Positions 1 to 34,396 of a stretch of 64,000 nucleotides of DNA are shown piece after piece. The translations under genes were made by a program, and so were the position numbers. Location of the stretch: positions 2,614,315-2,678,314 of the forward strand of contig NC_087384.1 of the NCBI RefSeq assembly GCF_963675165.1. The letters run 5' to 3'. The first letter of the stretch is position 1; every line of letters starts with the position of its first letter. The notes below the pieces were generated by a model. The model was not told where the DNA came from. It made no database searches and saw only the letters and a list, made by a program, of their open reading frames with translations. Source of the DNA: Halichondria panicea (lineage: Eukaryota).

Positions 1-1298
1 CGCTTCTTCGTAGGTAAAATATTCGTGGTCAGACATTCAACCACGAAAACCACGAATAGTTTGCCCCACGAAAATTACCCGCTATACGGTAATCTTTTAG
101 AGCAGCTTATGCAAAGTGATGAGGAAGTGAGCTCCAAAGGGGTGTCAGTACTCTCTACAAACCATAACAGGTCTGTTCCCAAGCCCTTCAAATACCATCT
201 CTTCGATCACACAATACAGTAGAGCAGGAGAGGTACGCAAACTTTCTGGACTTCGGACAACCTTTCATGGTGCTGCCACTACTTCACTGCATTGAGAGCT
301 GGCAAACATGCTTTGTTCCATGCAGTTCTAAACACGCTTTAATTCTGTGAAACGTACATGATTTCATATTGGAGATGGAGGTACACGAACCGGAAATTTG
401 GTGTTTTTTCACACAAATCAAGCTGAATAAAAGAAAGCTCGGCACTAACATAGCAACTGTAGATATCAGTAGTGCTGGGTGTATGTGTGCATGATGTCCG
501 ATTGCTTTGAATTTCTCTTTTAGGCCCCCTACAAGCAGATATAGGGATCATTGTGTACTTTCTTGAGCGCAACTCGCCTCCAACCAGAGGGTATGACATC
601 ACACACTGCATTTACCTAGCATCACGTGGGGCGTTGGCTATCCCTTTCTTTCGTTTATCTATGCTTTAAAATTACCACTTAAACAGGCGATAAAGGGACA
701 ACTGGGAAAAGAAAGCGATATTCATCTGCATCGGATTTTGTAGCTACTTAAAATTAATCTTTTGGAAAACACCAGAATGCACCTGAAATCCAGGTCCGCC
801 CACACAGGGCCCCTGAGCACAGCAGGGTGGGTGTGATCCACAGGCTGGTATTCAGGCCAGTCCACAGACCATGAAACTTTGTCCTCAGGCACTGGAAACC
901 GCTTCACTCCGTCTTGATAGTTGAACAGACGACAGTTGTTGACTTTAGCCATGTGCCTGACTGCAATGAGAGGTCCTGTGATGCTCGAGATACGAGACAA
1001 AAAAGACATGCAACTTTGGCTGGCAGAGAGGTAGTGGTCGTCCACTGCACTGATAACATCTATGACATGGATCAGGGTCTGAGTTTTGTAAGGGGGTGGG
1101 GCTCATAATAATTAACTAATAGTGAGCTAGCTAGCTGCTATACTGCAGGCTGTTTTTATGTTATTGTGGTGCAATAACAAGACCAGGATCGCAAAATGAC
1201 TGACAGCAAGCATTATCTCTTAGAGGAATCTGATGAATCTACTGTAAGGGATCATTAATAATTAATTAATCCACCCACTGCACTCACAAACAAATACT

Positions 1299-1616
1299 AT
1301 GCAGTTGACAGACCTCTCTTCGGACACAAGCCCCGAGTCTCACCGTCGCTATTCTTCAGCTTCCCTGTATGGCCACCCTGACAGTGTGGCGGAAAAGGCT
1401 CTCAACTCAACTCAAGACAAAATGGAGGGACAACCTTTGTCTCTCTCTCCAGTTGAAGAACCAATGTCCGTGGATAGAGAGAGCCTTCGGAAAAATGCAG
1501 TTCGAATTAGCTTGACTCGTCGAATACCTGTAAAAAAGGAAATGGAGAGGAAAGAATTGGAGAGTTTGGTCACTGCAGCTCACAATGACTTGGATAAGCT
1601 TATTCATTACACACTG
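1299..1616 (+). CDS. Paralog A exon 1 (putative start ATG 1299; ORF 1299..1625 cut at GTACAT donor, phase 0)
   Basis: ATG at 1299; donor GT at 1617 just before in-frame TGA; linkage to the PX gene is inferred. Confidence 0.4.
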
Positions 1617-3886
1617 GTACATTGATTGATACTGTGACCTGACAAATTTGGGCGCTATTGTTGACATGTGATTATGAACTCTATTGTAGTGGGTCTTAAT
1701 GTATGATTGTTTTGCTGCCCAATTAGTTGTTTTGCACCAGAAGAGTACGCAGTCTTTGATTTCAACACATACGTAGGTGACCTATATAGTGTAGCAAGGC
1801 CAAACTAGCACAACATTACTGCAAAGGTTGATTTGACATGATTTGACATGATTGTACTATTATGATAGTTAATAATTTTACAGATTGTTGTAGAGGAGAA
1901 TAATTCTCTCAAAGAGGTACTGAAGGATGCTGTGATTTTCAGTGAGGATGGAAACCTAGGAGATGTAAGGGGCATAATTATAGGAATGATTATTACTAAC
2001 ACCAAATCACTGCATGTGTATGCAGATTGTTGAATGCTGTACTGCTCAAATGCTGTACTGCTCAAACAACCGTGTGCATATACTTTACTGAACTTTTTTT
2101 CTTATAGTATTCTGAGATCCTAATCAGCAGGGATAAGGAGCTACCGATATTGAACAGCTTAAGTCACCAGCACTTTAGTACTAGACCGTTGCTTGCATCC
2201 TCTCACTCACAACCACAGCACTCTAATGAGGCAACAGTATCGCCTCAACCAGCAGTGTCGTCAGAGCACACGTACCAATCAGACCAAATGTTTGACCTAT
2301 CAATGGATACTAGTTCATTAAAATCTGAACCAACGCCTGTATTTTCAAGGAGCCTAAATGAGATCGAAGGAGAATTAAGTACTGGGAGTGAAATACGATT
2401 TAGCCCGTTTTCGCCACAAGCCACCATTGCTGAAAACTTCACTCATGCCGTTAGTAACCAGACAAATCTCGATATTGAAAATGTCATCAGGAGTCCTAGA
2501 GCTGAACTTTCAATCAGGAAACTACAGTTGCTGACGCAGTCTTGCAGAGAACACGGGAATAAGCACAACATTGGCGGGAGGTGTTCTACACGAGGAAAAC
2601 AGAAAAGTTCCAAGAAACCAAAACGTGCAAAGTCATTGCAAAAGGTGGCTGTTAACTACACAAGTAGTGAACTGGATGAGAGGGAAATAATGTTGAAGAA
2701 GCCAACATTTTTTACATCTGACATGCTAGCTGTGATAATGGAGAGAAATGAGCTTAAGGAGAAGGTTCACATGCTGGAGGAAAAGGTTGACGAGCTTGGG
2801 GAGTGAGTATAGTAATATTAAGTCCGTTTTTTGTGAAATATCCCATGTTTAGCCATTAATTTTCTCTTCGCATTCAATTTTGGCATAGATTTAATTTCTA
2901 GCATAAATTGTTGAAGTACATTGTCCATACACGTTATTCTTTTGTGCAGAGAGTTAGCTCACACTCAGATGAAGCTGGTTGATGAGTTGCAGGGCGAAAC
3001 TGAAGGTATTCAAAGAACAAACTTCTTTAGACGAAATACGAGAATAAAGTAAGGGAATTAGGTAGAATGCTTTGGCATTATTTTGTATACAATAATTATA
3101 TAGGAGCAAAAAATCTGAGAGTGAAATTTTCATCAGTGACGTGTTAGTGATTGGATACAAGAAGAAGGAGAGAGTGTTTGTAAGTATGGCTTGTATTGCC
3201 TAAGATTGTTATAACAAATGTACACTGTGGCAGGTGTATGTAATTCACACGACATGGTCTGATGGACAACGATTTGAGATCTACCGTCGCTATGGGGAGT
3301 TTTTCACCTATGATGACCGACTACTGCAGCTGTTTCAAACGGAAGGAAGCAAGATCGATAAAGTACTTCCCACTCTACCAAGTAAGTCACATCGATATAC
3401 TTGAAGAAATAAGCTACCCGTGCAGTACCAACACTAATGAAAGCACCGCAGGTGCTGATGCCTCGGTGGAGATGCCAAAGCTACATAACATAAAGCTACT
3501 AATAGCTTTCCACAATCATGCATGCAAACTCAATGACCGGCCATGATTGTTGTTAAAAACGATCGATGCCAAAAGTTCAAGTCTAAAATTAATGGCTGCT
3601 GTCTGCAGCGCAGAGCCTTGCAGCTCTCTTCTCACTCTTGCAGCTACCAATAGCTAGCGTTCTAGTGCAGAGCTAACTACTAAGTAGGGTAGCAACATTC
3701 GGTGAACAAGTTTGGCTACGTGCTTTTCTGAAAAGGCTGCAATGGCATTCCAAGTAAGCAAAACTAGGCATAACTCGAGAACGAAGCATTATTTTGCAAA
3801 TCCACGAATTAAACCCAAGTAAACATGGCTAGAAACCTATAGAAACTCTTACTTGCACTTGATTCATCCTTGAGCAGCTGTAGCAG

Positions 3887-3952
<66 letters not shown>

Positions 3953-6900
3953 ATCTGTATACCTCGCTTGCGCATGCACACTGAGGCATAATTATTACAA
4001 ATGCTATACAGTGTAGCACTCGTTATAATTTCATTTTCAGATATTGACAATGTGCTGAGTTTATTTGGTCGTACTAACAATGAACATGTTATCAAGCAAA
4101 GACTGGGGACTATCAATGACTACTGCCAGGTAAACAACTTGACTCCCTTCTCAACTGTAAATGGAAGTCCATTGCAAATGTGTACTCAGCATAGGGCCTT
4201 AACCTTATATTATTTCTATCACTATAATTAGTATACGTATTGTTTGCAGATTCTCCTTTGTGAATTGGATGTGATGATATCTAGAAACGATTTTGTTCTC
4301 AGTTTCTTTCGACCTCAACCAGGAGATAGACAGCTGCAAAAGTGTGTTTGTAAATTTTATAAATATACAGCTTTTACACATTTTCGTTTATACACAGCCT
4401 AGCCAAATCCAGAACTGAATCCGAGTTGGGTATGTCCATCATCTCTGTCTACCCTCAACAAGTTCCTGCAGGTACGAACACACATGTACATGTACTGCAG
4501 CCTTCTACTAGCGAGAAATACGATGAACACATGAAAACATTCAATTGTAATTGGTCGAGTGGATATCACGGTTTATTTTGTGTGATAATTGCAAAGGTGT
4601 ACACGTAGATTATTTAAAATGACCTCCCGTGTTCTTCTATACAGGCAGTACATTTGAAGAGTATGTCACACTGGCTGACTACAAACCAAAATCTGAGGGA
4701 GAGCTGTCAGTGAAGGCTGGGGAGGTGGTAAAGGTCATCAACAGAGAAGCTACTGGTAAGAAAAAACCAACTTTAATTGTGGAGCATACATTGACAAAAA
4801 TAATAGCGGCTCCTTTATACGATAGAGTGTATGACACTGTTGTCTCGATACTTACATCTTTGTAAAGGTTGGTGGATGGTCAGCCAGAGCCCGGAGTGTG
4901 AAGATGGAGAGGAGAGGGTAGGCTACATACCCGGGGACTTCCTCAAGAGATACGACCCAACTCAAAATGTAGACGAAGATTCAATAAAGAATTACCTTGG
5001 TTTCGTGTCTCCAGCTGCGCTTACTGATAGTGCTAGAGCAGACGTGGACTCCGCACTGAAGTATGTGGCTATTGAGGACTATACGTCTGACGATCCTCGC
5101 CAGCTGTGTTTCACTGAAGGGACACAAGTAATAGTCATTGAGAAGAGTGAAGATGGTAATTATACGTGTGTAAAATTGTGTAGGTTCTAAATTGTGTATG
5201 TTGAAAATTACTCGTACTGTAAGTAATTTTCATGCATTATTTTGTACTACGCATCTATGTAAAAATTATGCATGAGCATACTTTTAGGGAATACAATACA
5301 TTGACCAGCATGCAGTTCCTGCTGAACCTAAATTTAACTCAGTTGCTGTTGTCCAGCTATGGTCCTCCATTGCAGTTTACTTTGTTTGTACAGGATGGTG
5401 GTTAGTAGCAGCTGGTGGTCGACATGGCTGGGCTCCTGCATCGTACTTGGAGCCCATGGACAGAAGAATATATCCGGAGGGAGAGGGTAAGTTCTAGGAA
5501 GCACATCATTAAAGCTGCATCAGTTGCACAAAGAGGTCTTCCATATATATTGCATGTAATAATTATAGCCTCTGCCTCACACCATAAAAGTTTTCTAATT
5601 GAGAAGTCAAATCTATCACAAACAAATAGATAGATCTATATCATTAATTTTATACACTTGTACAGATTTGTTTGTCTCAATGAGAATAATGGACGTTGTC
5701 AGCGGAGAGAAATACGTGACTAAAGCTGCCTTCAAAGGAGAAATTGAAGAAGACATCTCTTTTCCCGAGAAGGCCACCATTGAAGTGATTGAGAAGTCCA
5801 TCAGTGGCTGGTGGATGGTCAGGTGATCAGTAAACTGCAAGGCTGTATAACAGAACACAATAATAAATGACTGATGTTGTCGTTTCAGTAACCACGTGCG
5901 GTCTTTAATTGTTTAACTTCCTCTATGCGTTACTGTCTGTTACAATGGTTACATCTGCAATTATCTCTTCGGAGGATGTCTTTGTTCAAAAATGAAAGTG
6001 TATCTTTTGTGCGTCAATGTTCATTTATGATTAATGCAGGCACAAGGGAAAGATTGGAATGGCTCCTGCTTCCATGCTAGCTCTCACAGAGTCACAACTC
6101 AATGTACCTGGAGAGTACAAATTTGCAATGACAGTGGTACGTAGCAATCAGTACCTTTCAATAGTACATGTACGTAAATACATTCCAGTAACAATTTATA
6201 ATGACACAGGATTTGGGACATGGCGTGTCTGGAATCATCCAACCTCCACCAAGAAGGTAAGAAGAATTTATGTATAATTGTAGAATGCCAAGCATGCCTT
6301 GTAAGTGGATGATTAACTGTAATGTCGTTGCTAGCGTAACTATTACATTACTCTTGATTTTGCAGCAAGAGGTTTCTCCTGCTGAGTCAGTCCCACCGTC
6401 GCCAACGATCCAACACTAACACGGACGAAAAGAATTTTGAAACGTTGTTTGAAGAAGGACACACACCCTGCAGTAGCTCGTCCAATTCAGATAATAGCGA
6501 TATTGAGACAAAGCATTCGTCGATGAGCAAACATGTGAGAAAGCATGTTATTACAAATGAAAAACGACGACGAAAATTCAAATCATTCTTGCATGTACGT
6601 CCTGATGACATCAAGTCAAAACGGTCGAGTTCCATGTCTCAGCAGGACAAAAGAGCAACTCTACCTGCATCCCTTATGCAGAGATCATGGGGAGCAAAGA
6701 AACTCGATTTTAAAGGAATGGAGGTGTTTATCGGAGAAAATTCTCCACTAGAAGCGAAAAAAGGCTCTTTTCCGAGCAAACCAAGATCTTTAAGCAATGA
6801 CGAACTGCTAATGGGCTCCTTAATGAACCGCGAGACGCAGGGTAAAGGTACCCCGTCAGATCAACCAGAAGATTTTCTTCATCACAATGATAAGCTACCA

Positions 6901-7281
6901 TTTGAGACTGAAGCTATCAGTAACCCAGAGTCAATCTGCGGCCTAGAAACCAAAATGAATGAAATTCAATGTACCAATGGATCCACTAAATGTGAGACTC
7001 AGCGAATGCTCCCTAAGCCTGTAGAGGAAAACACTCCATCAAAAATTGCTTTAAATGACCTCCCCCTAAGTAAAGACCTACATATTTCCCCTGCACAACA
7101 GCTAAACGTTCCCAGTGAGGCATCAATCGAAAGTACTAGTGGTGCGAAGACGAGTGAATCTATTAACATTATTGAGAACACAAAAACATTGTCATCCTTG
7201 CCAATGCCTGAAAGTGAAGAGGGGGAGCGAAGCGTTTCCACATCTGTAACCAATTGCAATGAGTCTAGTTCCGATCTATAA
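1299..7281 (+). CDS. Gene span: Tks/SH3PXD2-like adaptor paralog A (N-terminal coiled-coil-like extension + PX + 3 SH3 + Ser-rich tail), 16 coding exons, ~1126 aa
   Basis: PX motifs (YVIHTTWSDGQRFEIYRRYGEFF, INDYCQ) and three SH3 motifs (ALYDY-like ...GWWxV...GWAPASYLE) in exons joined by GT-AG introns with consistent phases; terminal ORF 6445..7281. Confidence 0.7.
1884..1964 (+). CDS. Paralog A exon 2 (27 codons, IVVEENNSLKEVLKDAVIFSEDGNLGD)
   Basis: ttttacAG acceptor, GTAAGG donor, phase 0/0; no ORF-track anchor. Confidence 0.35.
2108..2802 (+). CDS. Paralog A exon 3 (Ser/Gln-rich, ends in coiled-coil ERNELKEKVHMLEEKVDELG)
   Basis: ORF 2150..2806 frame extended up to cttatAG acceptor; GTGAGT donor overlaps the in-frame TGA. 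Confidence 0.5.
2950..3048 (+). CDS. Paralog A exon 4 (ELAHTQMKLVDELQGETEGIQRTNFFRRNTRI)
   Basis: ttgtgcAG acceptor; the GTAAGG donor at 3049 is the only one that keeps frame with exon 5 (a GTATTC donor at 3006 would break frame). Confidence 0.45.
3104..3179 (+). CDS. Paralog A exon 5, PX domain N-terminus (SKKSESEIFISDVLVIGYKKKERVF)
   Basis: Homologous to paralog B exon 1 (SEIVHIVVTGYQKKKSPNKYY) and to the Tks5 N-terminus (VVDVEKRRNPSKHYVY). Confidence 0.6.
3234..3381 (+). CDS. Paralog A exon 6, PX core (VYVIHTTWSDGQRFEIYRRYGEFFTYDDRLLQLFQTEGSKIDKVLPTLP)
   Basis: PX signature RRYxEF and proline motif; cAG acceptor at 3233, GTAAGT donor at 3382; phase-1 end conserved with paralog B exon 3. 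Confidence 0.8.
3420..3990 (+). repeat. Dispersed ~600-bp repeat family ending in a (CA)n tract, copy 1 (in the paralog A intron)
   Basis: Shares aatgaaagcaccgcaggtgctgatgcctcggtggagatgccaaagctac ... gctaccaatagctagcgttctagtgcagagctaactact ... (CA)n ... cctcgcttgcgcatgc with 61060-62200 and 63530-64000; partial copies at 20290-20530 (+) and 35200-35310 (-). Confidence 0.75.
3889..3952 (+). repeat. (CA)n microsatellite (tail of repeat copy 1)
   Basis: Direct. Confidence 0.9.
4041..4129 (+). CDS. Paralog A exon 7, PX C-terminal part (NIDNVLSLFGRTNNEHVIKQRLGTINDYCQ)
   Basis: ttttcAG acceptor, GTAAAC donor; matches Tks5 ...RLKPIDEYC. Confidence 0.75.
4250..4341 (+). CDS. Paralog A exon 8 (ILLCELDVMISRNDFVLSFFRPQPGDRQLQ)
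   Basis: tttgcAG acceptor, GTGTGT donor, phase-2 end as in paralog B exon 5. Confidence 0.65.
4398..4471 (+). CDS. Paralog A exon 9 (NLAKSRTESELGMSIISVYPQQVPA)
   Basis: acacAG acceptor, GTACGA donor; parallels paralog B exon 6. Confidence 0.6.
4645..4755 (+). CDS. Paralog A exon 10, SH3-1 N-half (GSTFEEYVTLADYKPKSEGELSVKAGEVVKVINREATG)
   Basis: Anchored to ORF 4629..4865 frame; GTAAGA donor. Confidence 0.8.
4868..5155 (+). CDS. Paralog A exon 11, SH3-1 C-half (WWMVSQ...GYIPGDFLKRY) + linker + SH3-2 N-half (KYVAIEDYTSDDPRQLCFTEGTQVIVIEKSEDG)
   Basis: Anchored to ORF 4831..5190 frame; GTAATT donor after ...GAT G. Confidence 0.8.
5394..5486 (+). CDS. Paralog A exon 12, SH3-2 C-half (WWLVAAGGRHGWAPASYLEPMDRRIYPEGEG)
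   Basis: tgtacAG acceptor, GTAAGT donor. Confidence 0.75.
5666..5822 (+). CDS. Paralog A exon 13, SH3-3 N-half (DLFVSMRIMDVVSGEKYVTKAAFKGEIEEDISFPEKATIEVIEKSISGWWMV)
   Basis: Anchored to ORF 5599..5826 frame; GTGATC donor. Confidence 0.75.
6040..6136 (+). CDS. Paralog A exon 14, SH3-3 C-half (RHKGKIGMAPASMLALTESQLNVPGEYKFAMTV)
   Basis: Anchored to ORF 6059..6277; GTACGT donor at 6137. Confidence 0.75.
6210..6256 (+). CDS. Paralog A exon 15 (DLGHGVSGIIQPPPR)
   Basis: acacAG acceptor, GTAAGA donor, phase 0 to 2. Confidence 0.5.
6366..7281 (+). CDS. Paralog A terminal exon (Ser-rich, basic tail; stop TAA 7279-7281)
   Basis: ORF 6445..7281 frame extended up to ttttgcAG acceptor (SKRFLLLSQSHRRQRSNTNTDEKNFETLFEEGHTP...). 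Confidence 0.7.
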
Positions 7282-7547
7282 CTGTTCTAGCTGTGCTGTG
7301 TGTTGTCTATGGTTTGTTTGTACTGAGTGTGTGGTAATGTTTACAAGCCAAAAATCAATTTATCTGCGGAAGTGGTCAAATACGCAAACCACAAAGCATG
7401 CCAAAGGGAATCTGTATATAAGAGCAATCATAACAGCAGCTAGACCTACTTAACTGTAAACTGTAAACATTCAAATACTTTATATAGGCTACTGCTGGCA
7501 GTTCCTTACTTATTCTGTAAATCAGTAGAATTGTTGTACGAGAGAGA

Positions 7548-7634
7548 ATGCCGTGGAAACGCTCCTCAAGGTCAGAGATAGTGCACATTGTGGTCACTGG
7601 CTACCAGAAGAAGAAATCTCCAAACAAATACTAT
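7548..7634 (+). CDS. Paralog B exon 1 (ATG; MPWKRSSRSEIVHIVVTGYQKKKSPNKYY, PX N-terminus)
   Basis: ATG at 7548; GTGAGC donor at 7635; homologous to paralog A exon 5. Confidence 0.65.
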
Positions 7635-10600
7635 GTGAGCAACTACAGCTGAGTTGTAATAATTATTAAACAGCTATAATTATAAGGCATAATGTACACT
7701 GAATCACCGGCCATAATTATCTAGACTTGTCAGTTACTCCGAACTAGCTGTTCAGTAGTTTATACTGCATGCATGCATGGATTTGATAATCAATCGACCA
7801 TTAGTATTAGACGACCTGTTTCCTTTTGCAGGTGTTTGTGATTGACATAACATGGAATAACTCCGAAAGATTCGAGGTTTATCGTCGCTACAGTGATTTT
7901 TTCTCTTTCCAGGTCAGTGACTACACACTGCATACATAATTGTACGTAATCACAGCACCATGACTGCATTTAGACAATAATACTGGCAGTTTTTCACCAT
8001 AAATTATTTAAAGACTTTTTGATACCCTACACTGTTACTGTTTGCTAACGTGTGCATCTTATGTGTTCACCTCATCCCACCTCTGCAGACGACACTCAAG
8101 GCTCTTTTCCCGGGTGCTGCTGGCAAGAAAACGGATACTAGGGTGATCCCCCAGTTACCAAGTGAGTCGGTATTGGTGATAGTGGCGATTAGACTAATTA
8201 AGGTTCCAACTACCAATGTTTGGGGATATACCAACATTGTTTCTTTCCCCTAGGTGATAGTTTGCTTAAAATTACTAGCTATGTACTCAGTCTATTTTGT
8301 AAAGCCAATGGATCAAGCAGTCCATACTTAAAGAGCAGCTGCTTATTCTACGTTGGTGGGAAACACCCGAATCATTATTACTGTATTTGCTGATGCCTCT
8401 TAATGGCATAATTAATTACATGGTGTACGTTGCCTTTTCTGAACTGCAACTTAAAGATGCATACTTACGTATTGAAACAATACACATGCAGTACTAAAAT
8501 TACATGCTGTTTATACTTACATGCTGCTTATACTTGCAGAGCGAATATTTGTCGGAAGGAGCCACGTTGCCAAGGTAGCAGAAGCAAGACTGGAACAAAT
8601 CAATAGATACTGTCAGGTATGGTATTCCCAATTGCTGCATTTGTCGTACTTCATGACATCACAGTATACCTGGTATAAGAACAGTGATAATTTATTACAA
8701 GTGAACTGTACGTAAAAATGGAGCGAATCGATTCATGAATGTGGCTTCACAAGATCGATTTGCTTGGCTTCTTTCAGAGATCATGCCAGCATTGTTGACA
8801 CACCATAGAAGGCTATGGGATGGTGGTGGTGTGTGGACATCTGGTTCATCACCCTCTGATGTCTATTGATTTGTGTTAGACCCAAGAATACATGTGTTGA
8901 TGATAATATCCAACTACTGAATAGGTTAAAATACGGTACTAATAATTATATTTATTTTCCCTTAGACTCTGATCAGTCTAGAGCCGTTGATCTCTGAGAG
9001 TGTCCATGTGATTGGTTTCTTTAGCCCACGAAGCACAGACAAACCACTTCCAAAGTAAGCATTGATTGATCCACTACAGTATTGCACATACTTTTAATGA
9101 CAGCTAAGTGCCATTTAATGCCGGCAACAGAATAAATAAGTGAAACCTTTTGTGTACACATAATTTTATGAAGTCATTTCTAGCTGATATACACACAAAA
9201 AAACCCACAGTGTTACTGTACACAGTTGGATGAGTAATTGTTCTCTTGGGCCCTCCCCTATCATGCACTCTTGACCTTACTGGAACCTGTCACATGCATA
9301 CTATACTCCCACCCTTTGCAGGCTTCATCTACACAGACCAGCCTCCATACATCCTCAGAAGATTCCGGCAGGTAACCTAAATAGGCCAGAACTACAATGA
9401 CATCGATAATATCTGTAGTCAGTCATCTAGAGCATTCTTTGCGTACACTTCACTATAATTATTGCTGTTATATGTACTGTACAGTATACCCGAGTTTTCC
9501 ATTATCATCACCACGGTCCATGCAGGTAGTCTATTTGAGGATTACTGTGCTCTGGCAGAATACCAGGCCGAGGACGAGTCTCAAATCTCTTTTAGTCCTG
9601 GGGAGAAGGTGCTAGTGTTGTCTAAAGATGATTCAGGTAAGTAACAGTTGTGTCTGGGGCATGGCCCTGTTTGGAGGCTAATTATTAGGTGTGTACAAAG
9701 AATTGGAACGTACTCTAAATTTGGGTTTGTATTAAGATTAATTTGCTACAAAATCATGGTATTTACACTACATTATTAGGTATGTAACTGGCATTTTTCC
9801 AAGGAAACGACTGTAGTGTGTGTGCTTCCCCCACACGTTGTGGTCAAATTTTAATCCTCCACACGTACATTGCATGCCCACAGCTGCCCCACCAAACCAC
9901 TTGTTTACTGTGCTATAGCTGCTGTGGCCAAATACAGCTGTTTAATTCTGGCAATCAGTTTGCCCAGTGTTGGCTAATGTCACTTTTTGTTTTAAGTATC
10001 ATGAAGTTCTTATTTGACTGTGCTCCAAATATAAGGAAGTAGTACCCCCACAAATTATTTTAGCTTTATGTTTTCCTCGATCAATAGCACTTCCTTCATT
10101 TCCCTCTCGAAGTATAATACCCTAATACCCTGCAAGTGATGTTCATGTCTTAATTGACTATAATTATATATAGTATGTGTACCGGTTCAGTGTGTAATGT
10201 ATACATAATGTATACATGTATGCATGTGCATGTCTCAATAATTATAGTCTACCGATTCAGTGTTTAATGTGCATGTCTCAATATAGTCTGCCGGGTCAGT
10301 TTGTAATGAATGTAACACTACAGGTTGGTGGATGTGCAGTGTGGACGGAGGTAAGGTGGGCTGGGCCCCTCCCTCCTACCTCAAGAAATGTGAGAAGAAC
10401 AGTGACGGAGATAGTGACACAGACGATGAATACATTGGATTTCCCGATTCCTGTAAGCCACCACCTGCATGCATGGTACACACATTCATGCACTATTAGT
10501 ATGTCTTCTCTGTTGTAAAACCATACTTGAGTGTGTATTACACATACACATGCTTTTAATCATTCTCTTATTTCCATTCCCACTCACCTCGTCACAACAT

Positions 10601-13600
10601 CACAGACGCTAAGGAGAAAGACTCTGATGACAGTGGTGTGGGGGACCACGAATCTACGCCCGATAGCTCGTTGATGCAAGGCTTTAAAGCCCCCGAGATA
10701 GATGCGGAGGCGTACAAGGCGATAGACTCGTACGAGGCTGAGGGTCCAGGTCAGGTGACCTTTGAGGCCGGCAGCACTGTGCATGTCCTGGATAAGATGG
10801 AGGATGGTGAGTGCATGCATAGTTATGGCTAGTTAATCCATCCGTAAAGGAGTGGCCAACTCTCATAGCATGTGTGTGATTATGTTATAGTTATGTTATA
10901 GTTATACTAGTTATACTAGTTATACTATGGTTCTAGGGATTTATGGCAAATAACTAACCACTAACCACTCTCTTCTCACAGTGCATGCATAGTTATGGCT
11001 AGTTATGCATAGTTATGGCTAGTTAATCCATCCATAAAGGAATGGCCAACTCTCGTAGCATGTGTGATTGTGTTATTATAATACCACTCTCTTCTCACGC
11101 AGGATGGTGGTTTGTGAGCAATGGTGTTGATGAGGGCTGGGCTCCGTGTAGTTACCTGGAAAACGGAGGAGATGAAGAGGAGGTGGCCATCTCCAGCCTA
11201 GGTGAGGACTAGCAGTCTGTATGTATGGCAGGTGACTGTCCGTATTTGGCAGTGAGCTAGTAACATTTAAGTATGAGGGATTATAAGTACTCAACTGAAA
11301 GTATGGTTGTTTTGTCATGCGGATATAGTTTGAATGACTGTGCATTTACTGAAATTCTTGTGAAACCAACCATCTAAATATCCTGCACACTATAGTTACA
11401 ATCAATTAATACCTGATACATGCATGGTCTTAATATTGCTTAATAGCTATAGGCACTTCATGGCTCATTGAGTGGACTTTTATTAGTACTTGGAACATAC
11501 CAAATTATTACTCCCTTTTTGTGACGATTAACATTGCACAGTTATTATGCTCAATATCATGCATACATTAATTAACGTTTGCCAAACAACAAAGATTTTA
11601 AATGTAATATCTGGTTACAAGCTGTTTGATGATGGTATAGCTACGTAGGGCCCAATGCATGCCATGCATCTGATTCATCTCAATTATCGTGACACAGATT
11701 TGCAAGTGCTTGTTTACTATCATAGTAGCTGTCCAAATAGGTATTTCCTGTCACTATTGTATGATTGCCAACACAATCCTAAATAAGGTGATGTCTAACC
11801 CCACCAACCCCCTTCAAGTAAAATCTGCAATTTCAACCTAGGAAAGCCTATTTTTACTTATATTAGTATGGGTACTCAGAGATCACCTCACCCCACCCCC
11901 TCTAGATATTCAAAAGTATGTGACCCTGGAGGAGTATAAAGCTGAGGAGGACGACGAGATGTCATTTGTAAAGGGCATTACAGTTGACGTGATTCAGAAA
12001 AGGCTGGATGGATGGTGGCTGATCAAACTACACTCTAGGATAGGTCTGGCACCAGCCACTTTCTTGAAGAAGCTCTCGAGCCCCTGCCCTCAGAGTGAGT
12101 CAGGAGAGGAGCCCCTTTTTCGTAAGGTCAATGTGGTGACGGCTTCGTCTCCTCCACAACCTGAGTTTCTGATCACCAACAAGCAACCACCAAGAAAGTG
12201 AGTTGAAGTTCCCTACGTACACCATGCCACCAATTAATTAAACCACTCAAAATTGAATTATTGTCCCTAAAATTTCTCTCACTTTATATGGCTTTGACTT
12301 CGAGGACAGTCATTTTGATTTTTGTTGTACTGACAGGTTTAAATTCACACCAGTAATTTAAATTGGTTTGTGCAGAGGCTATGAATTAGTATAGCAGTAT
12401 ACCCGTTGCCCTAGCTATCAGCTTGCAAGTAGTTTTGTGTGCATGTAACCAGTGACCATGTTTCCTGTCTTGCCCCAGGCATTACACCCTAACTGTGTTG
12501 AAGCATTGCCAACACACCCCCGCATGAGCAATGCACGTTTGAGCATGCGATGCATGTACCAGTGGGGGTGCTGCTTACTATACTGTATACACTGTAGCTG
12601 TTGATAGCATGTGATACATGTACCAGTGGGGGTGCTGCTTACTATACTGTATACACTGTAGCTGTTGATAGCATGTGATACATGTACCAGTGGGGGTGCT
12701 GCTTACTATACTGTATACACTGTAGCTGTTGATAGCATGCGATGCATGTACCAGTGGGATAGCTGTTGATAGCATGCGATGCATGTACCAGTGGGATAGC
12801 TGTTGATAGCATGCAATGCATGTACCAGCGGGGGTACTGCTTACTATACTTTATACACTGTATACGTAGCTGTTGATGCAGCACATGCATAACACAACTG
12901 TACCTGTGCATGTATGTATTCACTGTCACATCACTTTTTCTCTCTACAGGCAATCGGTTCGTTATCGAGCTAGTATGAAGAAGAACATATTAAACAAACC
13001 TCAAGCTGAGAAGAGAATTCTCTCACCTCTCCACCAAGTACAGACCACTCCCCTCTCTCCGATCTCATCCGAAGTGACAAGTGATCCCGGTAAAAGCCTG
13101 GCTAAAGGGCGTTTAAATGCACCAATACCTGCACCAAGAACTGCCCGCAACTTAAGCCCAATCTCTTCCGATTCTGAGCCAGAATCACAAGGGCAGAGCA
13201 AATCACAGCCTCCAAAATCGCCAAGAATGGTCAAACGTGGTTTGGAAAGTAGGATCAAAAAGTTCGAGAAACGTAGAGAGTCAGAATCTTCAATGAGCGA
13301 GGACAGTATTCCTGCCTCCCACAAATCAGAGCGTCTTTCTAAGCAAATATCCTCTCCAGATGTGCACACAGATTCACATGTAAAAGTACACGGAAAATCT
13401 TACTCAGTGGATGAAGTATCAGAAGACAGAAGGAGGGGGGAAGTTCCAACACCACCCCCTCGCCCTCACAGAGCTGAAATGAACCGGCTGCATGTTCCAG
13501 TTATCCCCAAGATTACCGAGGATCTGTTAGCAGACGATTCTCCTTCCTCAGGCCCAAATAGACCAGCTAGACCGAGAGTGAGTGAGATACGAAGAGCCAA

Positions 13601-14069
13601 GGATAAATCACGATCTACGAGTCCTTACAGGTTGGACGGAGAAGGAGACACTGATGCTTCCTCCGTGTTCTCTATGAGCTCAAAAAGTTCATCAGAAGTT
13701 TCCTCCAAAGCACATCACAGAAAAGTTCACAAGAAACTAAGCACTGTTGACACACCTTCTGCCTCTTTGTTGCCTCCACCTGTACCTCGACGAAAGAGCA
13801 CTAGTGATGCAGACATTGACGAAGCTTGTGCTCCACCCCTTTCAGCTCCACCCCAACGACTGCCCACAGACACTTCACAAGCTGCCAATCCACTCAGCCA
13901 GCAAATGGCAGACACACTGATCAAGTACATTTTAGCGTCAGAGGACCCAGGACTCAAAGACGCTTTACGTCAAATCATCACGAGCAACCCTCAAGCAATG
14001 AAGGTCATACAGGGTGATACGGGAGTGCAAGGTGGAAGGCCACCTACTCCCCCACAGAGACCTTATTGA
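7548..14069 (+). CDS. Gene span: Tks/SH3PXD2-like adaptor paralog B (PX + 3 SH3 + long Pro/Ser-rich tail), 12 coding exons, ~802 aa
   Basis: Exon-by-exon homology to paralog A with conserved intron phases; terminal ORF 12873..14069; AATAAA at 14144. Confidence 0.75.
7832..7912 (+). CDS. Paralog B exon 2, PX core (VFVIDITWNNSERFEVYRRYSDFFSFQ)
   Basis: ttttgcAG acceptor, GTCAGT donor. Confidence 0.8.
8089..8161 (+). CDS. Paralog B exon 3, PX (TTLKALFPGAAGKKTDTRVIPQLP)
   Basis: Anchored to ORF 8050..8253; GTGAGT donor; phase-1 end. Confidence 0.8.
8540..8616 (+). CDS. Paralog B exon 4, PX C-terminal part (KRIFVGRSHVAKVAEARLEQINRYCQ)
   Basis: Anchored to ORF 8521..8715; GTATGG donor. Confidence 0.8.
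8967..9055 (+). CDS. Paralog B exon 5 (TLISLEPLISESVHVIGFFSPRSTDKPLP)
   Basis: ccttAG acceptor, GTAAGC donor, phase-2 end as in paralog A exon 8. Confidence 0.6.
9322..9371 (+). CDS. Paralog B exon 6 (KLHLHRPASIHPQKIPA)
   Basis: ctttgcAG acceptor, GTAACC donor. Confidence 0.55.
9526..9636 (+). CDS. Paralog B exon 7, SH3-1 N-half (GSLFEDYCALAEYQAEDESQISFSPGEKVLVLSKDDSG)
   Basis: Anchored to ORF 9462..9644; GTAAGT donor. Confidence 0.8.
10324..10452 (+). CDS. Paralog B exon 8, SH3-1 C-half (WWMCSVDGGKVGWAPPSYLKKCEKNSDGDSDTDDEYIGFPDS)
   Basis: ctacAG acceptor, GTAAGC donor. Confidence 0.75.
10606..10806 (+). CDS. Paralog B exon 9, acidic linker + SH3-2 N-half (...AYKAIDSYEAEGPGQVTFEAGSTVHVLDKMEDG)
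   Basis: Anchored to ORF 10638..10832; GTGAGT donor at 10807. Confidence 0.8.
11103..11201 (+). CDS. Paralog B exon 10, SH3-2 C-half (WWFVSNGVDEGWAPCSYLENGGDEEEVAISSLG)
   Basis: ctcacgcAG acceptor, GTGAGG donor. Confidence 0.75.
11906..12197 (+). CDS. Paralog B exon 11, complete SH3-3 (KYVTLEEYKAEEDDEMSFVKGITVDVIQKRLDGWWLIKLHSRIGLAPATFLKKL) + linker
   Basis: Anchored to ORF 11920..12201; GTGAGT donor overlaps the in-frame TGA. Confidence 0.75.
12540..12870. repeat. Minisatellite (~62-bp unit x ~5, with 36-bp truncated variants) in the last intron of paralog B
   Basis: Repeating gatagcatgtgatacatgtaccagtgggggtgctgcttactatactgtatacactgtagctgtt. Confidence 0.85.
12950..14069 (+). CDS. Paralog B terminal exon (Pro/Ser-rich tail with PxxP motifs PPPRP, PPPVPRR, PPTPPQRPY; stop 14067-14069)
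   Basis: ORF 12873..14069; ctctacAG acceptor restores frame with exon 11 (aa + g = K). Confidence 0.75.
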
Positions 14070-14149: not shown

Positions 14150-14604
14150 GTGCTAAGTATTTATTTATAATTATTTTGTTTACTCACTTCACTCAAATTT
14201 TTAATTAAAAGATATCATTCTATTTTGTGTATAACCCTCTGTATTGTGCGTCCATAATTATACGTTGTTCAAGGATAGCAGTTGATCTGCTGATTAATTA
14301 TTGTAATGCCGATTGCATTGTCATTATTGCAATTCAAAAACTAGCTATATACAACTGAAAGCTGAAGGTTGGCATCAATTAGTCTATATACTATTCTTAT
14401 GCTCAATCCATTATACAAAATTAATTTTCTTTGCGGATACAAACTTTCACGTGAATTCATACACATAATTATTATTACTATATACTTTCAAAAAGGACTA
14501 CACACACACATGTACATGCACACAAGCCAAAAAATAAAGCAATTCTCAAAAAATCAATCAAAAACTGAAGGATATTGGCACTACATTCTACACTTTGCTA
14601 AAAG

Positions 14605-14748
14605 TCATTTAGGGAATGATTTTAGTTCCAGTTTACCTACTGCAGTTGTATGTACCTCGTCTGGACCGTCTGCTAGCCTCAGGATACGAGCCCAAGAGTA
14701 GAACTGAGCCAGAGGGGTGTCCGCAGACAGACCCTTGGCACCAAATGC
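14605..14748 (-). CDS. ACAD10-like terminal exon ([47 protein letters not shown], stop)
   Basis: ccacAG acceptor; TGA stop is the complement of 14605-14607. Confidence 0.75.
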
Positions 14749-17700
14749 CTGTGGGGAAGTTATTGGAAAGTATAATCAGTCCGGTATACAAAACAGTAAT
14801 ACTGTACGTAGATAGGTTATGTTTACTATGCACTTACAGCATAGCTATTGAACAGCTCTACTTTCATGGTATAATTATTTATAAGCCACGACGGGTGTGT
14901 GAGTGTAAGGTCTTATTGGGTTATCGCAATTTCCATATACAGCCGCTATTACTGCTCACCTGCATTGCTCTGTCCACTACCCGCTGAGCCATGTGGGGCG
15001 CCACCACCTTGATCATGGCTATCTCCTGTCGGGCAGCCTGTATCACAGCAAAGATAAAAGTAGTGAATAGATACACAACAATATCTAATTAATATCTTGA
15101 AGCCCTGTGACCACTGCAAGGCACCACCAAATGTAATCTGTATACATACATGTTTCTGTGACTACATCAAAGGCCCACCTTGTTGCCCACTGTATCCATC
15201 ATGTGAGCAGCCTTGAGAGTGAGCAGTCTGGCCTGTTCCAACTCCATTCTAGAGTGAGCAATGTCTGCCAGGATGGTGTCTCTCTCAGCCAGGGTCTTCC
15301 CAAATGCAACCCTCTCCTTCACCTGAAATTTAAAAACATGCATTGCATATACTTGAATAGATAATGAATGCAGATCTTGATTGCAAGAGCTTTCGCAGAA
15401 CATTTTAACAAAACTGGGGCTTTTGGTGACTTGCCATATAAGAGTTTAGTACATGTACAGTCATGCATGTACATCATTTTTCATAACAGTGAGAGATCGG
15501 CTGCTTATTGGATGTGACCATAACTCACCCGTTCTTTCATCAGCTCCAGAGATCTCTCTGCCAGACCAATTAACCTCATGCAATGATGGATACGTCCAGG
15601 TCCCAGACGCCCCTGGGCTATCTCAAAGCCACGCCCCTCTCCCAGAATGAGATTGTCGGCAGGAACTTGTACGTTTATAAACTCTATCTCAGCGTGGCCA
15701 CCAGGAGCATCATCATACCCAAACACTGTCAGAGGTCGGAGTACAGACACGCCTGCTGTTTCCATGGGAACCAATACCATCGACTGTAGTTGGACATTGA
15801 AAGGACACATGATAGGGAATTTATTATACGATTACAAAGGAACTAGTGGTATTGAACATGAGTCGCTGTATTACTGTACACACATGATTGTGTATAATTA
15901 TGAACATTTGTCAATTATAGCACCTGCTGTTTGTGCCTTGGGGCAGTTGGGTCTGTCTTCCCCATGAAGATACACACCTTACATCTGGGATCCATGGCTC
16001 CTATGAAGTTAGTGTATATATAACCAAGTGTCAAATTCAAACATTGTAGGTTGATAACGTCAAAGGCTGTATAAATGCCCTTGATAACGCGTTCAGTACG
16101 TGTCATCAATATCCCTCTAAATTTACATGACAGTGCAAGAGACAATTCATGGAATGTATTGTGATGTCAAGTTGCCTATATCTTATGCTGAAACGTCATG
16201 CATTAAATTGGATAGTATTGCATGATCGACCGTGGGTGTACCTGATATCCACCACTTTCTGCCGTTTACGGTGTACCCTCCACCATTAGCACGAGAGATG
16301 GAGCTTTGAATGTTGGTGGCATCAGAGGAGGCCACCCCCGGCTCTGTCATACCAAAGCACGACCGAATATCACCCGAGAGAAGCGGTTTCAACCATTCTT
16401 GCTGTGTAGGGAATGGAAGGCATAAATTGTGGACCTAATAATTATTGTTAAGTTTCGCAGTTAAAGCATACGTATAATTAGCATAAACCAGACCTTCAAC
16501 ACTAGAGGTAAAAATCACTGCAAATTTGACGAACCTTTTGCTGCTCTGATCCATACTGTACCAACACTTCCATATTACCAGTGTCCGGAGGACTACAATT
16601 GAATGGCTGAGAGCGTGGGGGCGTGGGGGCAGCATTAACGCATGCATGTACGCACATGATATTGTACACATCACAGTTACTGTAATGGCCCAAGAGTGCA
16701 CGGACAAATTATGTACAAGCATTTGTAGATAAAAATTTAGTACACCTTCCCAGATTACATGTACCCTGATTAAATCATGCATGTGAGATTACTCATAATT
16801 ATTACGGTGTCATCATAATTATATCACATTACCAAGGACGTCCTTGACATTACTGAAATGTGCGTGCGCATTTCCTTTATCTACATTCTGTACCTCTGAC
16901 CCGAATAAACTGTGTCCCATGAGCTCAGCCAGGTGTGAGTACTCTAGGTTGGTCAGACCAGCACCGTAACTAGTGGAAGGGTCAGAGTCCGACGGCAAGA
17001 AGAGGTTCCATAGACCACATTTCTTTGTCTTGGCCTAGAACAAAATAATAGACTACATGTGTGTGTTCTCAAAGGTTGCATGAGCACAATTAATTAACTG
17101 ATTGCTTTTGCTTTGCTGTAACTTAATTTTGTGTATATGCATGCTCTTGCTAAATGAAGTACATGTACATGTACATCTATGGTACTGCCTATAGGCAACT
17201 TTAGAGGAGGGGGGCACCAGTTTTGTGTGTGCACATCTTATATAAAGCGCTCTGTTATGTACTCAACAAACACTGAGGCTATACATGTACATATACATAT
17301 ATCAGCATTCACAAGCTTTCGTGCCTTCTGTTTATTTGTACAAGGTACTTGTATCAGCTCGTATACACATGCAGCCTCTTATTTTGTGACACGTACATAC
17401 ATGTATCTTGCACCTTAAGTGCCTCCATTTTTGAGTGAGGTGTCCATCTCTCTGTCGACTGTTGATGCTCAAAGAGCTCCTCTTCTATTGGCAGCACTTC
17501 TTCTCTGATAAACTCTCTCACCTCTTTGTACAGCTGCTGCAGCCGAGGGGGGAAAGTGCTTGGGGGCCCTGTAATTAATTCAATCGAGGGGGCAGATGTG
17601 GAGTGATTCCTGTGGGGGGTAGCATTCTGAGGTGCAAGTGTAGAGAAAGTTCTTGCTCCAGGGGGCTTAGGGATTCGTGTGGGTGTGTTGTCTTGCTTCT

Positions 17701-23170: not shown

Positions 23171-23367
23171 TCTGTTGCTAGCTAAGCTAGCTAGCTATTC
23201 AGCTATAAAAAAGTATCTCCTCAATACCACGCCCCCTACATGCTTTGTGCTAATGTTAAGCCGCGGTGGTATTCGAGGTTTAAGAATTATTTGCCAGAGA
23301 AGGGCCAGGGAGCTGGAAATCACAAAACAAAACTGAGAACAATAAATAATGTGCAAAAGTTATCATA

Positions 23368-26142: not shown

Positions 26143-27609
26143 TTATTCACAGGCCAACTTGGAGTCGAAGCTAGACAACACAATAGAAAACGCCTGCAGG
26201 GCACACATGGGAAAGCTGTAATCGAGAGTGAATGTGTCCTCTGAAATACGACCAAACTGCATCACAACATAATCCTCATGTGAACTGTGCACCAATTGAA
26301 AGTTCTTCACAGATGCTTGAGTAACTCGGCCATGAAAGTTGAGCACATACGCCTGAGTGTCATCAGACCACACTGGCTGCTTGTTATGCACCTCCAGCAG
26401 ATCTGACATGTGATTGTTTCGCCACCTCTCCAGTAGTGTTTCATTTTCTACTTTTGGAGTGACTGGAATCCTCTTGTGAACATGATTCATCGCTGGAATA
26501 ATGACAGTCATTTTCCGAGGACCTTTGAAGCCAAGAACATTTGTCTCGTAATGAACAGCAGCAAGTTCCTCACGAATGATTTTCTGGCCAGGTTTAACTT
26601 TTCTTCTTTGTGGGTTAGCACCTCCATTGAAAACTGTGAATGATGTGCCGACAAAATTAGAGCGAACTTTCCCAATGAAATTCTCACCATCTCTCGAAAG
26701 GTCAGTAGGATCGGTTGATACCAAATAGTTGGAAGAACGACTCTTCTTTCGTTTGCGTGCTGCTAGTAGGAATATCTTTTTTCCACTGTCTTCTCTTTCC
26801 ATGTGTAGGAAGTAGGTGGGGTAAAGATACCTTTCCATGCCTTTCTGATCCCTGGTCACTCTGCATTTTATTGTTACCCCCTCAGGAGCTGGTTGGTGCA
26901 CAAAGTCGTGTAAATCTTCGATTTCTCCACCTCCAGGTGTTAACGTGAGAGCAAGACTTTGCATTTGCATTCCTGTTGCTTGCGACTCTACAGCTGCAGT
27001 TGGCACAACTTTTGCAGCTTCTTCTGTGGACACGGCGGAACTTGGGGAGGCTTCTTTTGCACCAGGGTTGCCCAGTACCTCAATCTCATCATCACTATCT
27101 TCAGATTCGTAATCTACAAATGCGGTTAACCCCATAGAGTCCAGTTTTGATTGAGCTGTTTGTCCGTTAGATGATGAAGACTCATTTTCTTTGCGTTCGA
27201 TAAAAGACCCCTGCTCAGAAAACTTAGTGTTCACGGTGATAGGAGTCGGGAATGTATGATTTCCGTTAGGTTGTATAGTCTTTAGCACCTCAGAGGATTT
27301 AATCGACTCTAAATGACCTTGTGCTGTTGTGTTTCCTGTTTCTATGAGGGGCGGTGTCAGGGGGGGTGAAATGAGTGGAGTCTCGCTACTTGCACTCGGT
27401 CTCCGTGAAATCATGTCACTATCGCTGGAGGCAGTTGGAATATCAGAAGTGGGACGACTGGTCGGTCGAAGGTATTTTGAGGATAAAGGACGAGCACGTC
27501 CACTGATAGCCATGACCATTCCTGATTGCCTTTGTCGCTGTTTCTTCTTTTCTTCCATGAGAATTCGCTGTTTGTCCAGCATCTGCTGTCGCTTGGCTTC
27601 ACCATCCAT
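26143..27609 (-). CDS. Tubby-like protein (TUB/TULP family), single uninterrupted 488-codon ORF
   Basis: ORF 26143..27609; C-terminal tubby domain nearly identical to vertebrate TUB ([59 protein letters not shown] ... [37 protein letters not shown]). Confidence 0.85.

Positions 27610-30731: not shown

Positions 30732-30774
<43 letters not shown>

Positions 30775-34353: not shown

Positions 34354-34396
<43 letters not shown>

Follow-up and report, generated by a model that had tools for sequence, protein, structure and literature searches.

Two PX-SH3 adaptor genes lie head to tail

The window analysed here is a 64,000-nucleotide stretch of the Halichondria panicea genome (NCBI RefSeq assembly GCF_963675165.1, contig NC_087384.1, positions 2,614,315 to 2,678,314 of the forward strand). 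It carries two adjacent adaptor genes, termed paralogues A and B, each encoding a PX domain and three SH3 domains. The window is eukaryotic, with approximately 41% G+C and short GT-AG introns. Both gene models were rebuilt by hand and checked by script. Splice sites are canonical GT-AG throughout A and B, and neither open reading frame (ORF) contains an internal stop. Pfam recognises one PX and three SH3 stretches in A and likewise in B, in agreement with the rebuilt models and with a preliminary description of this DNA, which had recognised two complete plus-strand paralogues in head-to-tail order. That description had drawn A at 1299-7281, with 16 exons and 1126 amino acids; the revised model is longer.

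1196 to 7281, plus strand: paralogue A, revised; 17 exons, 1140 amino acids; N-terminal extension, PX, SH3, bis-SH3 and Ser/basic tail
6366 to 7281, plus strand: last exon of A; Ser/basic tail, conserved C-terminus and stop codon TAA at 7279-7281
7548 to 14069, plus strand: paralogue B; 12 exons, 802 amino acids; PX, SH3, bis-SH3, Pro-rich tail and C-terminal helical module

The core of A aligns with B at 35% identity over 413 amino acids (BLASTP, E 7e-75). Seven introns occupy the same alignment column in the same phase in both copies, including those following PTLP (phase 1) and YCQ (phase 0). Two further introns located in variable linkers are probably equivalent (PEGE/D versus SSL/D in phase 1, and PPPR/S versus QPPR/K in phase 2), and two introns are private to A and two to B. 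The conservation of intron positions and phases noted earlier thus extends to seven, probably nine, introns. The tails are as dissimilar as first described: three PxxP motifs and 5.9% Pro in the Ser/basic tail of A versus 13 motifs and 12.1% Pro in B.

Orthologous exons of A are colinear in assemblies L003-L009, and the B sequence MPWKRSSRSEIVH is conserved in L005, L008 and L009 as well as in the transcript P0001. An AATAAA hexamer lies 75 nt downstream of the B stop. Pseudogene status was considered for either copy and rejected, as both reading frames are intact and conserved in several species.

The C-terminal residues of A (7264-7278) read SSSDL in the window, AVDL in L005 and L008, and TVDL in L009; by appearance, they look like a PDZ-ligand-type motif. 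Several introns of the pair contain repeats. In intron 11 of B, a 64-bp unit is repeated 4.9 times in tandem and contains a nested 37-bp repeat (12542-12862), an intron in the PX region of A holds an (AC)31 microsatellite (3890-3951), and other introns contain smaller duplications of 16-39 bp.

Start and N-terminal extension of paralogue A

Paralogue A carries a long region upstream of the PX domain that B lacks. Its exons were compared across assemblies counted as six: L003; L004; L005, L006 and L007 (apparently one taxon); L008; and L009.

1196 to 1243, plus strand: exon 0 of A, an ATG-bearing mini-exon of 16 codons (MTDSKHYLLEESDEST) with donor GTAAGG
1244 to 1304, plus strand: first intron of A, 61 nt; its acceptor (tatgcag/TTG) contains the ATG at 1299
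1305 to 3048, plus strand: exons 1-4 of A, N-terminal extension, with motifs including HRRYSSASL (1341-1367) and DLDKLI.YT
3049 to 3103, plus strand: intron joining extension exon 4 to the first PX exon; 55 nt, phase 2

The start at 1299 drawn in the preliminary description probably does not hold. At the position of the window's M of MQLTDL, L006 encodes Tyr and L008 a stop codon, while the AG directly 5´ of (C/T)TGACAGA is retained in all relatives compared. Upstream, a mini-exon with an ATG and a ...ST/GTAAG donor is also present in L006, L008 and L009; in these relatives the ATG is followed by 11-15 further codons to ...ST and then by the GTAAG donor. In the window, an in-frame stop lies six codons upstream of ATG 1196. 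Comparison of the sequences indicates that translation of A most likely starts at ATG 1196 and that ATG 1299 is probably part of a splice acceptor. The extra N-terminal region was correctly assigned to A, but its size, previously given as approximately 370 amino acids in exons 1-4, is revised to approximately 412 amino acids in five exons.

The extension exons lie upstream of the PX exon in the same order in all assemblies compared. Exon 4 (…FFRRNTRIK) ends in phase 2 in every assembly, with GTAAG, GTGAG or GTACG as the donor, and the phase-2 donor/acceptor pair at the 3048/3104 junction is kept in all six. The intron between them measures 50-61 nt in five assemblies and approximately 200 nt in L004. 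The first PX exon opens at a phase-2 acceptor, encodes a conserved segment (…ESE.F[IV][ST]DV…) and contains no ATG in five of the six assemblies. Because the phase-2 junction is kept despite varying intron length and the PX exon has no conserved ATG, these comparisons make a strong case that the extension and the PX-SH3 region form one gene. In five assemblies exon 4 and the PX exon stand only 50-61 nt apart, a gap too small to hold the promoter and first exon of a second gene. The possibility that the N-terminal exons belong to an unrelated gene, raised in the preliminary description, thus runs against a conserved junction. An internal start producing a PX-only isoform was rejected, since relatives do not keep the Met of exon 4 or that of exon 5.

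Exhaustive HMMER searches with a 398-residue query of the extension returned only exon-sized ORFs on short genomic or metagenomic contigs of sponge type. Protein searches with the A core returned only Tks-like proteins at approximately 30% identity, and no full-length or transcript-derived A orthologue. Near the N-terminus of A, all orthologues keep the segment H(R/H)R(Y/F)SSAS(L/M) (1341-1367), which is reminiscent of a phosphorylation site for basophilic kinases (RRxS).

A probable RH2-like coiled coil ends the extension

The last approximately 70 residues of the extension are strongly conserved, with the pattern K(K/Q)P(K/T)FFTSDML.VI(M/T)ERNELKE.V..L.EK running into exon 4.

2696 to 3046, plus strand: RILP-homology-2-like (RH2-like) coiled coil; KKPTFFTSDMLAVIMERNELKEKV... 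(2696-2800), continuing into exon 4 (2951-3046, ...GIQRTNFFRRNTRI)

When a profile of six orthologues was compared with 177,635 PDB sequences, JIP3 ranked first (E 0.018), RILP fourth (E 0.04) and RILPL2 fifth (E 0.083), all three in one register over P-x-F…E-R-N-x-L-K. An hhalign comparison with the three RH2 fragments gave 95.4% probability (E 2e-8). The whole extension matches nothing significantly in Pfam; the RILP family (PF11461) is matched by five of the six orthologues (best E 0.0011, all under the gathering score) and is the only family that matches most of them. In the window, the alignment of A to Pfam RILP extends into exon 4, to the FFRR segment. The exon-4 peptide …FFRRNTRIK resembles the short segment with which RILPL proteins continue C-terminally of their RH2 coil. 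A scan of JGI metagenomes with the RH2 profile returned only VSKX01099326.1, a contig already in the set.

The similarity to the RH2 domains of RILP, RILPL1/2 and JIP3/4 (PF11461) consists of (K/R)-P-x-F-…-E-R-N-x-L-K followed by a heptad coiled coil. In RILPL2, the X-cap arginines R130 and R132 plus K149 are required for (phospho-)Rab binding (PMC7139218). The A orthologues have an invariant Lys at the K149 equivalent, keep F133 and P131, and have Lys or Gln (Lys in most) at the R130 equivalent. The end of the extension is, on these alignments, a probable RH2-like coiled coil. In A this coil is fused to PX-SH3 modules; we know of no described RH2 protein with such a combination, although the literature searches were not aimed at it.

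PX and SH3 cores and their family placement

3132 to 4318, plus strand: PX domain of A (residues 422-539) in four exons; Pfam PX E 1.2e-07, above the gathering score
4656 to 4953, plus strand: SH3-1 of A, an extra SH3 between PX and bis-SH3; Pfam SH3_1
5059 to 6085, plus strand: SH3-2 and SH3-3 of A, the bis-SH3 equivalent; best matches SH3-1 and SH3-2 of Tks, p47phox and a Monosiga protein
6240 to 6375, plus strand: QPPPRSKRF of A after the bis-SH3, a basic PPR segment
7578 to 9031, plus strand: PX domain of B (residues 11-128); Pfam PX E 3.7e-14, above the gathering score
9537 to 10388, plus strand: SH3-1 of B, the extra SH3; Pfam and domain comparison
10707 to 12072, plus strand: SH3-2 and SH3-3 of B, the bis-SH3 equivalent; colinear with the p47phox tandem SH3
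12181 to 12965, plus strand: KQPPRKQSVRY of B, a basic PPR motif spanning intron 11, at the position of the p47phox autoinhibitory region (AIR) and of Tks PPPRR
13452 to 13472, plus strand: tandem-SH3-ligand motif in the B tail; regular-expression match to the PMC12730246 pattern; P0001 orthologue VPPRPGR

The best PDB sequence matches of both the PX domain and the tandem SH3 are to p47phox. For PX, these matches reach E 1e-18 to 1e-19, and the basic-pocket positions YRRY and GR(T/S) are kept in the alignment. AlphaFold2 (AF2) was run on the B orthologue P0001; its PX domain, three SH3 domains and C-terminal three-helix module are folded confidently. The PX domain of this model superposes on the p47phox PX structure 1o7k with a TM-score of 0.87-0.90 and a root-mean-square deviation (rmsd) of 1.7-1.8 Å (Foldseek).

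The p47phox tandem SH3 (8wej_C, residues 157-282) is colinear with B residues 265-388 (E 2.4e-42), which correspond to SH3-2 and SH3-3 of B and not to SH3-1 and SH3-2. Compared one domain at a time with Tks, p47phox and Monosiga, sponge SH3-3 is invariably closest to SH3-2 of those proteins and sponge SH3-2 is in most cases closest to SH3-1; sponge SH3-1 has no consistent partner. Because SH3-2 and SH3-3 match the bis-SH3 of the family, the sponge layout is PX, extra SH3, bis-SH3; the linker within the bis-SH3 is short (approximately 15-24 residues).

A phase-2 intron after PPR is common to A and B. The motifs that follow the bis-SH3, PPPRS in A and QPPRK in B, are basic and contain PPR; neither fits the strict tandem-SH3-ligand pattern [PAVIL]PPR[PR][^DE][^DE] (PMC12730246). 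Strict matches lie further along the tail, PPPRPHR in B and VPPRPGR in P0001. The tails of A and B contain no Pfam domain.

The sponge proteins share with p47phox and NOXO1 the N-terminal PX domain with YRR(Y/F) and GR basic-pocket positions and the colinear bis-SH3; with p47phox they further share a basic PPR directly after the bis-SH3, at the AIR (APPRR) site. The second PPPRP/VPPRP-type motif of B, further along the tail, is like p47phox 365-VPPRP-369, and the order PPRK, PPPRP motif, tail places B nearer to p47phox than to Tks. They differ from p47phox and NOXO1 in the extra SH3 between PX and bis-SH3, in much longer tails and in post-bis-SH3 motifs (QPPRK, PPPRS) that fall outside the strict published pattern; neither the C-terminal helical module of B nor the N-terminal extension of A is known in p47phox or NOXO1.

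Among homologues that carry a name, echinoderms, hemichordates and vertebrates contribute 'SH3 and PX domain-containing protein 2A/2B-like' proteins, and Monosiga and Capsaspora proteins are also matched. Tks4/Tks5 (SH3PXD2B/A) and the invertebrate 'SH3PXD2-like' proteins give the best full-length named matches and are alike in having PX, bis-SH3, a PPPRR-type motif and more than two SH3 domains. In Tks and its echinoderm, hemichordate and placozoan homologues, however, the extra SH3 domains (two or three in SH3PXD2 proteins) come after the bis-SH3, bringing the number to four or five, and the final one sits at the C-terminus. The sponge proteins contain three SH3 domains altogether, none of them after the bis-SH3 and the extra one before it. 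The earlier label 'Tks/SH3PXD2-like' is therefore retained only at the level of the p47phox-related superfamily. By sequence, A and B belong to that superfamily and count neither as Tks orthologues nor as p47phox itself. A survey that did not include sponges followed the p47phox/Tks organiser family back to choanoflagellates, and early-branching p47phox-like genes sit closer to SH3PXD2 (Kawahara & Lambeth, PMC2121648).

A conserved helical module at the C-terminus of B

13887 to 14012, plus strand: conserved helical module of B (…MADTLIKYILASEDPGLKDALRQIITSNPQ…), residues 743-784

The C-terminus of B contains a module that is conserved in P0001 (residues 614-655), P0002, P0004 and P0015 and is absent from A. 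In the AF2 model of P0001, it forms three helices with a predicted local distance difference test score (pLDDT) of 82-89. Because Pfam and PDB sequence searches give no relative, the module is uncharacterised. Assignment to an STI1/RAD23-like motif was tried and is unsupported (RAD23 E approximately 0.7; lectin matches were spurious repeats). The B-type C-terminal motif reads …MADTLIKYILAS.DP.LK.ALR..I.S[DN]P….

Age and linkage of the pair

The closest full-length relative of B is P0001 (64% identity), which is encoded intron-free on two Logan contigs and, being intronless, derives from a transcript assembly. The best named match is Em0015g1059a of Ephydatia muelleri (42%); from this single named match and the tree described below, the sequence on its own points to a sponge, probably a demosponge. 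The A and B copies are 35-41% identical. Whether relatives keep a single copy had been raised in the preliminary description; tblastn finds both A and B, in the order A then B, in L005, L008 and L009.

A neighbour-joining tree of PX plus bis-SH3 (247 columns, 500 bootstraps), following the phylogenetic comparison proposed there, unites all sponge A and B sequences at 99%. Within this clade, A sequences group at 100% and B sequences, including Ephydatia and P0004, at 79%. Vertebrate Tks4/Tks5 pair apart at 100%, and the sponge clade does not group with them. Because the tree places the duplication inside the sponge clade and at least three further assemblies retain the pair, the duplication is judged to be ancient and to have occurred within the sponge lineage. 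The original reading as a tandem duplication was correct but had not recognised its age, which is apparent from the 35-41% identity, the presence of the pair in at least three other assemblies and the 99% clade. From the sequence comparison, B is taken to keep the ancestral form and A to be the derived copy.

The spacer between A and B

7282 to 7547, plus strand: A-B spacer, 266 nt from TAA 7279-7281 to ATG 7548; no canonical poly(A) hexamer
7365 to 7381, plus strand: conserved element TGCGGAAGTGGTCAAAT, containing an 11-mer kept in four loci
7415 to 7422, plus strand: TATA-like box TATATAAG, 133 nt before the B ATG

The short spacer described earlier is present, although its length between the A stop and the B ATG is 266 nt rather than 267 bp. 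The absence of AATAAA and ATTAAA was reproduced, and the scan also found none of 12 common variant hexamers; the next plus-strand ATTAAA lies at 7665, within B intron 1. This absence is confined to the present species and not conserved. The spacers of L005, L008 and L009 measure 239, 328 and 362 nt, and L008 has ATTAAA 43 nt after the stop and also AATAAA, while L005 has CATAAA and TATAAA. A GT-rich stretch lies directly 3´ of the A stop in the window.

The sole block that aligns across four species is TGCGGAAGTGG(T/A)CAAAT. The 11-mer occurs once per locus (64, 11.5, 20.5 and 12.7 kb) and always in the spacer, at +57 to +94 nt from the A stop and -183 to -269 nt from the B ATG. The GGAA core of the element marks it as a putative ETS-type site. 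The TATA-like box has a counterpart in L009 (TATATAAA at -205) and is not found in all four species.

The B orthologue of a relative is represented by its own transcript contigs, with 5´ untranslated regions (5´ UTRs) of 97 nt and 12 nt and no A-like sequence upstream; the 97-nt 5´ UTR is without the conserved 11-mer. At the other side of the spacer, A ends in conserved residues (SSSDL in the window versus ..VDL in relatives) and keeps its stop, which makes a fused A-B protein unlikely. Most likely, A and B are transcribed separately, with B expressed from a predicted promoter inside the spacer.

Neighbouring genes and other content of the window

A minus-strand ORF at 722-1045 lies head to head with A; its likely ATG near 1009 is approximately 186 nt from ATG 1196, which suggests a short bidirectional promoter region between the two. 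This ORF matches nothing in Pfam at E ≤ 0.001. In L008, minus-strand ORFs upstream of A, in the same relative position, match Pfam NUDT9_N.

Downstream of B, an ACAD10-like gene (approximately 14600-23200, minus strand) is convergent, with its 3´ end within approximately 500 nt of the B stop. Its domains (HAD, APH kinase-like and acyl-CoA dehydrogenase) were assigned from L001, a transcript contig of a relative, with a single HAD exon recognised in the window itself. Synteny extends past the pair, to the minus-strand ORFs upstream of A and to this gene, which L001 likewise carries in convergent orientation.

The remainder of the window contains the following, and an Rfam scan of the whole window returned no RNA family.

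26146 to 27645, minus strand: Tubby-domain gene (Pfam)
approximately 28500 to 35100, plus strand: major vault protein gene; the Pfam scan covered exon 33121-33432
37222 to 37632, minus strand: bZIP gene (Pfam)
41119 to 42465, plus strand: integrase-containing retroelement fragment, with a zinc-binding domain in 41119-41805
48397 to 49317, plus strand: apparently intronless ORF, a GNAT acetyltransferase of 307 amino acids
49444 to 50250, minus strand: apparently intronless stop-to-stop stretch of 269 codons with a methyltransferase domain
56775 to 58355, plus strand: Zwilch (RZZ complex) gene (Pfam)

The adjacent GNAT and methyltransferase ORFs, apparently intronless amid an intron-rich region, could be retrogenes or horizontally acquired.

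Interpretation and alternatives

We interpret the locus as an ancient tandem pair of p47phox-family adaptors of the sponge lineage that has been kept adjacent, in which A is the derived copy with an RH2-like extension, B is the ancestral form, and the two are transcribed separately; we give this reading a probability of roughly three in four.

Several observations weigh against it. The phylogeny is neighbour-joining only, over 247 columns, with A on a long branch and the B clade at 79%. The A homologues recovered are all exon fragments from genomic DNA, and none is a transcript. The window's own A scores E 0.014 against Pfam RILP (16.4 bits versus a cut-off of 24.8), and the RH2 similarity spans only approximately 31-35 residues; generic coiled coils score almost equally. 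The RH2 proteins RILP, RILPL1/2 and JIP3/4 have an N-terminal RH1 domain; none was detected in A by Pfam, or in the PDB with a profile of the first approximately 170 residues (best E ≥0.15, unrelated proteins). The equivalent of RILPL2 R132 is Lys in four species and Thr in the window and L005, and in RILPL2 this residue reads phospho-threonine, even R132K abolishing phospho-Rab binding (PMC7139218). In the AF2 model of P0001, there is no confidence bump or docking signal at QPPRK or VPPRPGR, and the tandem SH3 pair does not superpose as a unit on p47phox (Foldseek, rmsd 10-18 Å). In the spacer, the distance of the 11-mer is steadier from the A stop than from the B ATG, and the 11-mer could be a 3´ UTR or termination element of A rather than a promoter element of B. 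Some components of the interpretation are limited by these points: autoinhibition of these proteins is unsupported by the model, and a RILPL2-type phospho-Rab reader in A appears unlikely because the R132 equivalent is Lys or Thr. Plain dimerisation or binding of an unphosphorylated GTPase by the coil is possible.

The extension of A can be read in two other ways. It may be a largely disordered region peculiar to the lineage, containing a generic coiled coil whose RH2 likeness is due to chance or composition and which has no Rab-effector function. Scores below threshold, designed coiled-coil peptides and bZIP zippers in the same score range, the missing key Arg and the lack of RH1 all fit this view, which nonetheless has to explain why three different RH2 proteins stand in the top five of 177,635 PDB sequences and why they share a register that includes the non-heptad P, F and E-R-N and the Lys equivalent to K149. 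The hhalign probability of 95%, and the fact that RILP is the only Pfam family matched by most orthologues with the window alignment reaching FFRR in exon 4, likewise speak for a genuine relationship, and we regard a generic coil as an unlikely explanation that still carries some weight. Far less credible is a separate RILP-like gene in exons 1196-3048 that ends at TAA 3050-3052, with PX-SH3 as a different transcription unit. An in-frame stop does follow the exon-4 donor directly in five of six assemblies, but such a stop is automatic for a phase-2 exon before GTAAG or GTGAG, and L004, with donor GTACGT, continues for 23 further codons without a stop. The extension of the Pfam RILP alignment to the exon-4 segment (…FFRRNTRIK) would also suit a gene ending there; against this stand the compatible phase in all six assemblies, the conserved acceptor and coding sequence 5´ of PX without an ATG in five of six, and the gap of 50-61 nt in five assemblies, too short for a promoter and first exon.

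The other alternative concerns transcription. Although structurally separate, A and B could, as the preliminary description suggested, form one or overlapping transcription units, A running into B and ending at ATTAAA 7665 or beyond, so that B would be partly or wholly read-through or bicistronic. This would account for a 266-nt spacer without AATAAA, ATTAAA or common variants and with the first ATTAAA in B intron 1, for the tight linkage in four genomes (spacers 239-362 nt) and for the steadier spacing of the 11-mer to the A stop. It agrees less well with the relatives, in which the lack of hexamers is not conserved (ATTAAA at +43 and AATAAA in L008; CATAAA and TATAAA in L005) and one of which yields a separately assembled B transcript with a 5´ UTR of 97 nt. 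The conserved A stop and C-terminal residues, the GT-rich stretch after that stop and the TATA-like box 133 nt before the B ATG also favour separate units. Short intergenic gaps moreover appear normal in this window, the A ATG lying approximately 186 nt from the apparent divergent ATG near 1009 (by eye). A shared unit is on balance improbable.

Proposed functions and significance

Under the favoured reading of an old, separately transcribed pair, both PX domains would bind phosphoinositides, as the conserved basic-pocket residues suggest. Each core runs from PX through a lineage-specific extra SH3 to a bis-SH3 homologous to p47phox SH3A/B and Tks SH3-1/2, followed by a basic PPR(K/S) segment where other family members carry their autoinhibitory tandem-SH3 ligand. 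B would most likely act as a lipid-recruited and possibly self-inhibited scaffold for proline-motif partners, in the manner of p47phox and NOXO1. A would have lost the Pro-rich tail and C-terminal module and gained approximately 412 N-terminal residues from five additional exons whose splicing to the first PX exon preserves the frame, and may be a dimeric scaffold with a possible small-GTPase (Rab) site beside its PX and SH3 modules. The promoter of B would lie in the 266-nt spacer, and the 3´ end of A would be squeezed into, or overlap, the same spacer. A bolder proposal, which we consider speculative and improbable, is that A is an RH2/p47phox-type fusion restricted to one sponge clade and acting as a dimeric coincidence detector of Rab and phosphoinositide, and that the pair stays adjacent through cooperation (for example, SH3 domains of A on PPPRP-type motifs of B) or through shared spacer DNA around TGCGGAAGTGG.

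The gene pair is ordinary in kind, and an RH2-like coil on a PX/SH3 organiser is modestly novel. Annotation pipelines are likely to err at this locus on the start of A, on the link from the extension to PX-SH3 and possibly by merging A and B across the short spacer. For the family, the pair indicates a form of the scaffold that arose within the sponge lineage, carries an extra SH3 ahead of the bis-SH3 and was duplicated in tandem and retained, one copy receiving an RH2-like coil; the locus offers a clean, testable case of domain accretion through added in-frame 5´ exons. If the RH2 reading holds, A would combine Rab-effector and phosphoinositide/SH3 scaffold modules; the bolder proposal, if true, would give an early-branching animal a direct connection between Rab trafficking and a scaffold of NOX-organiser type.

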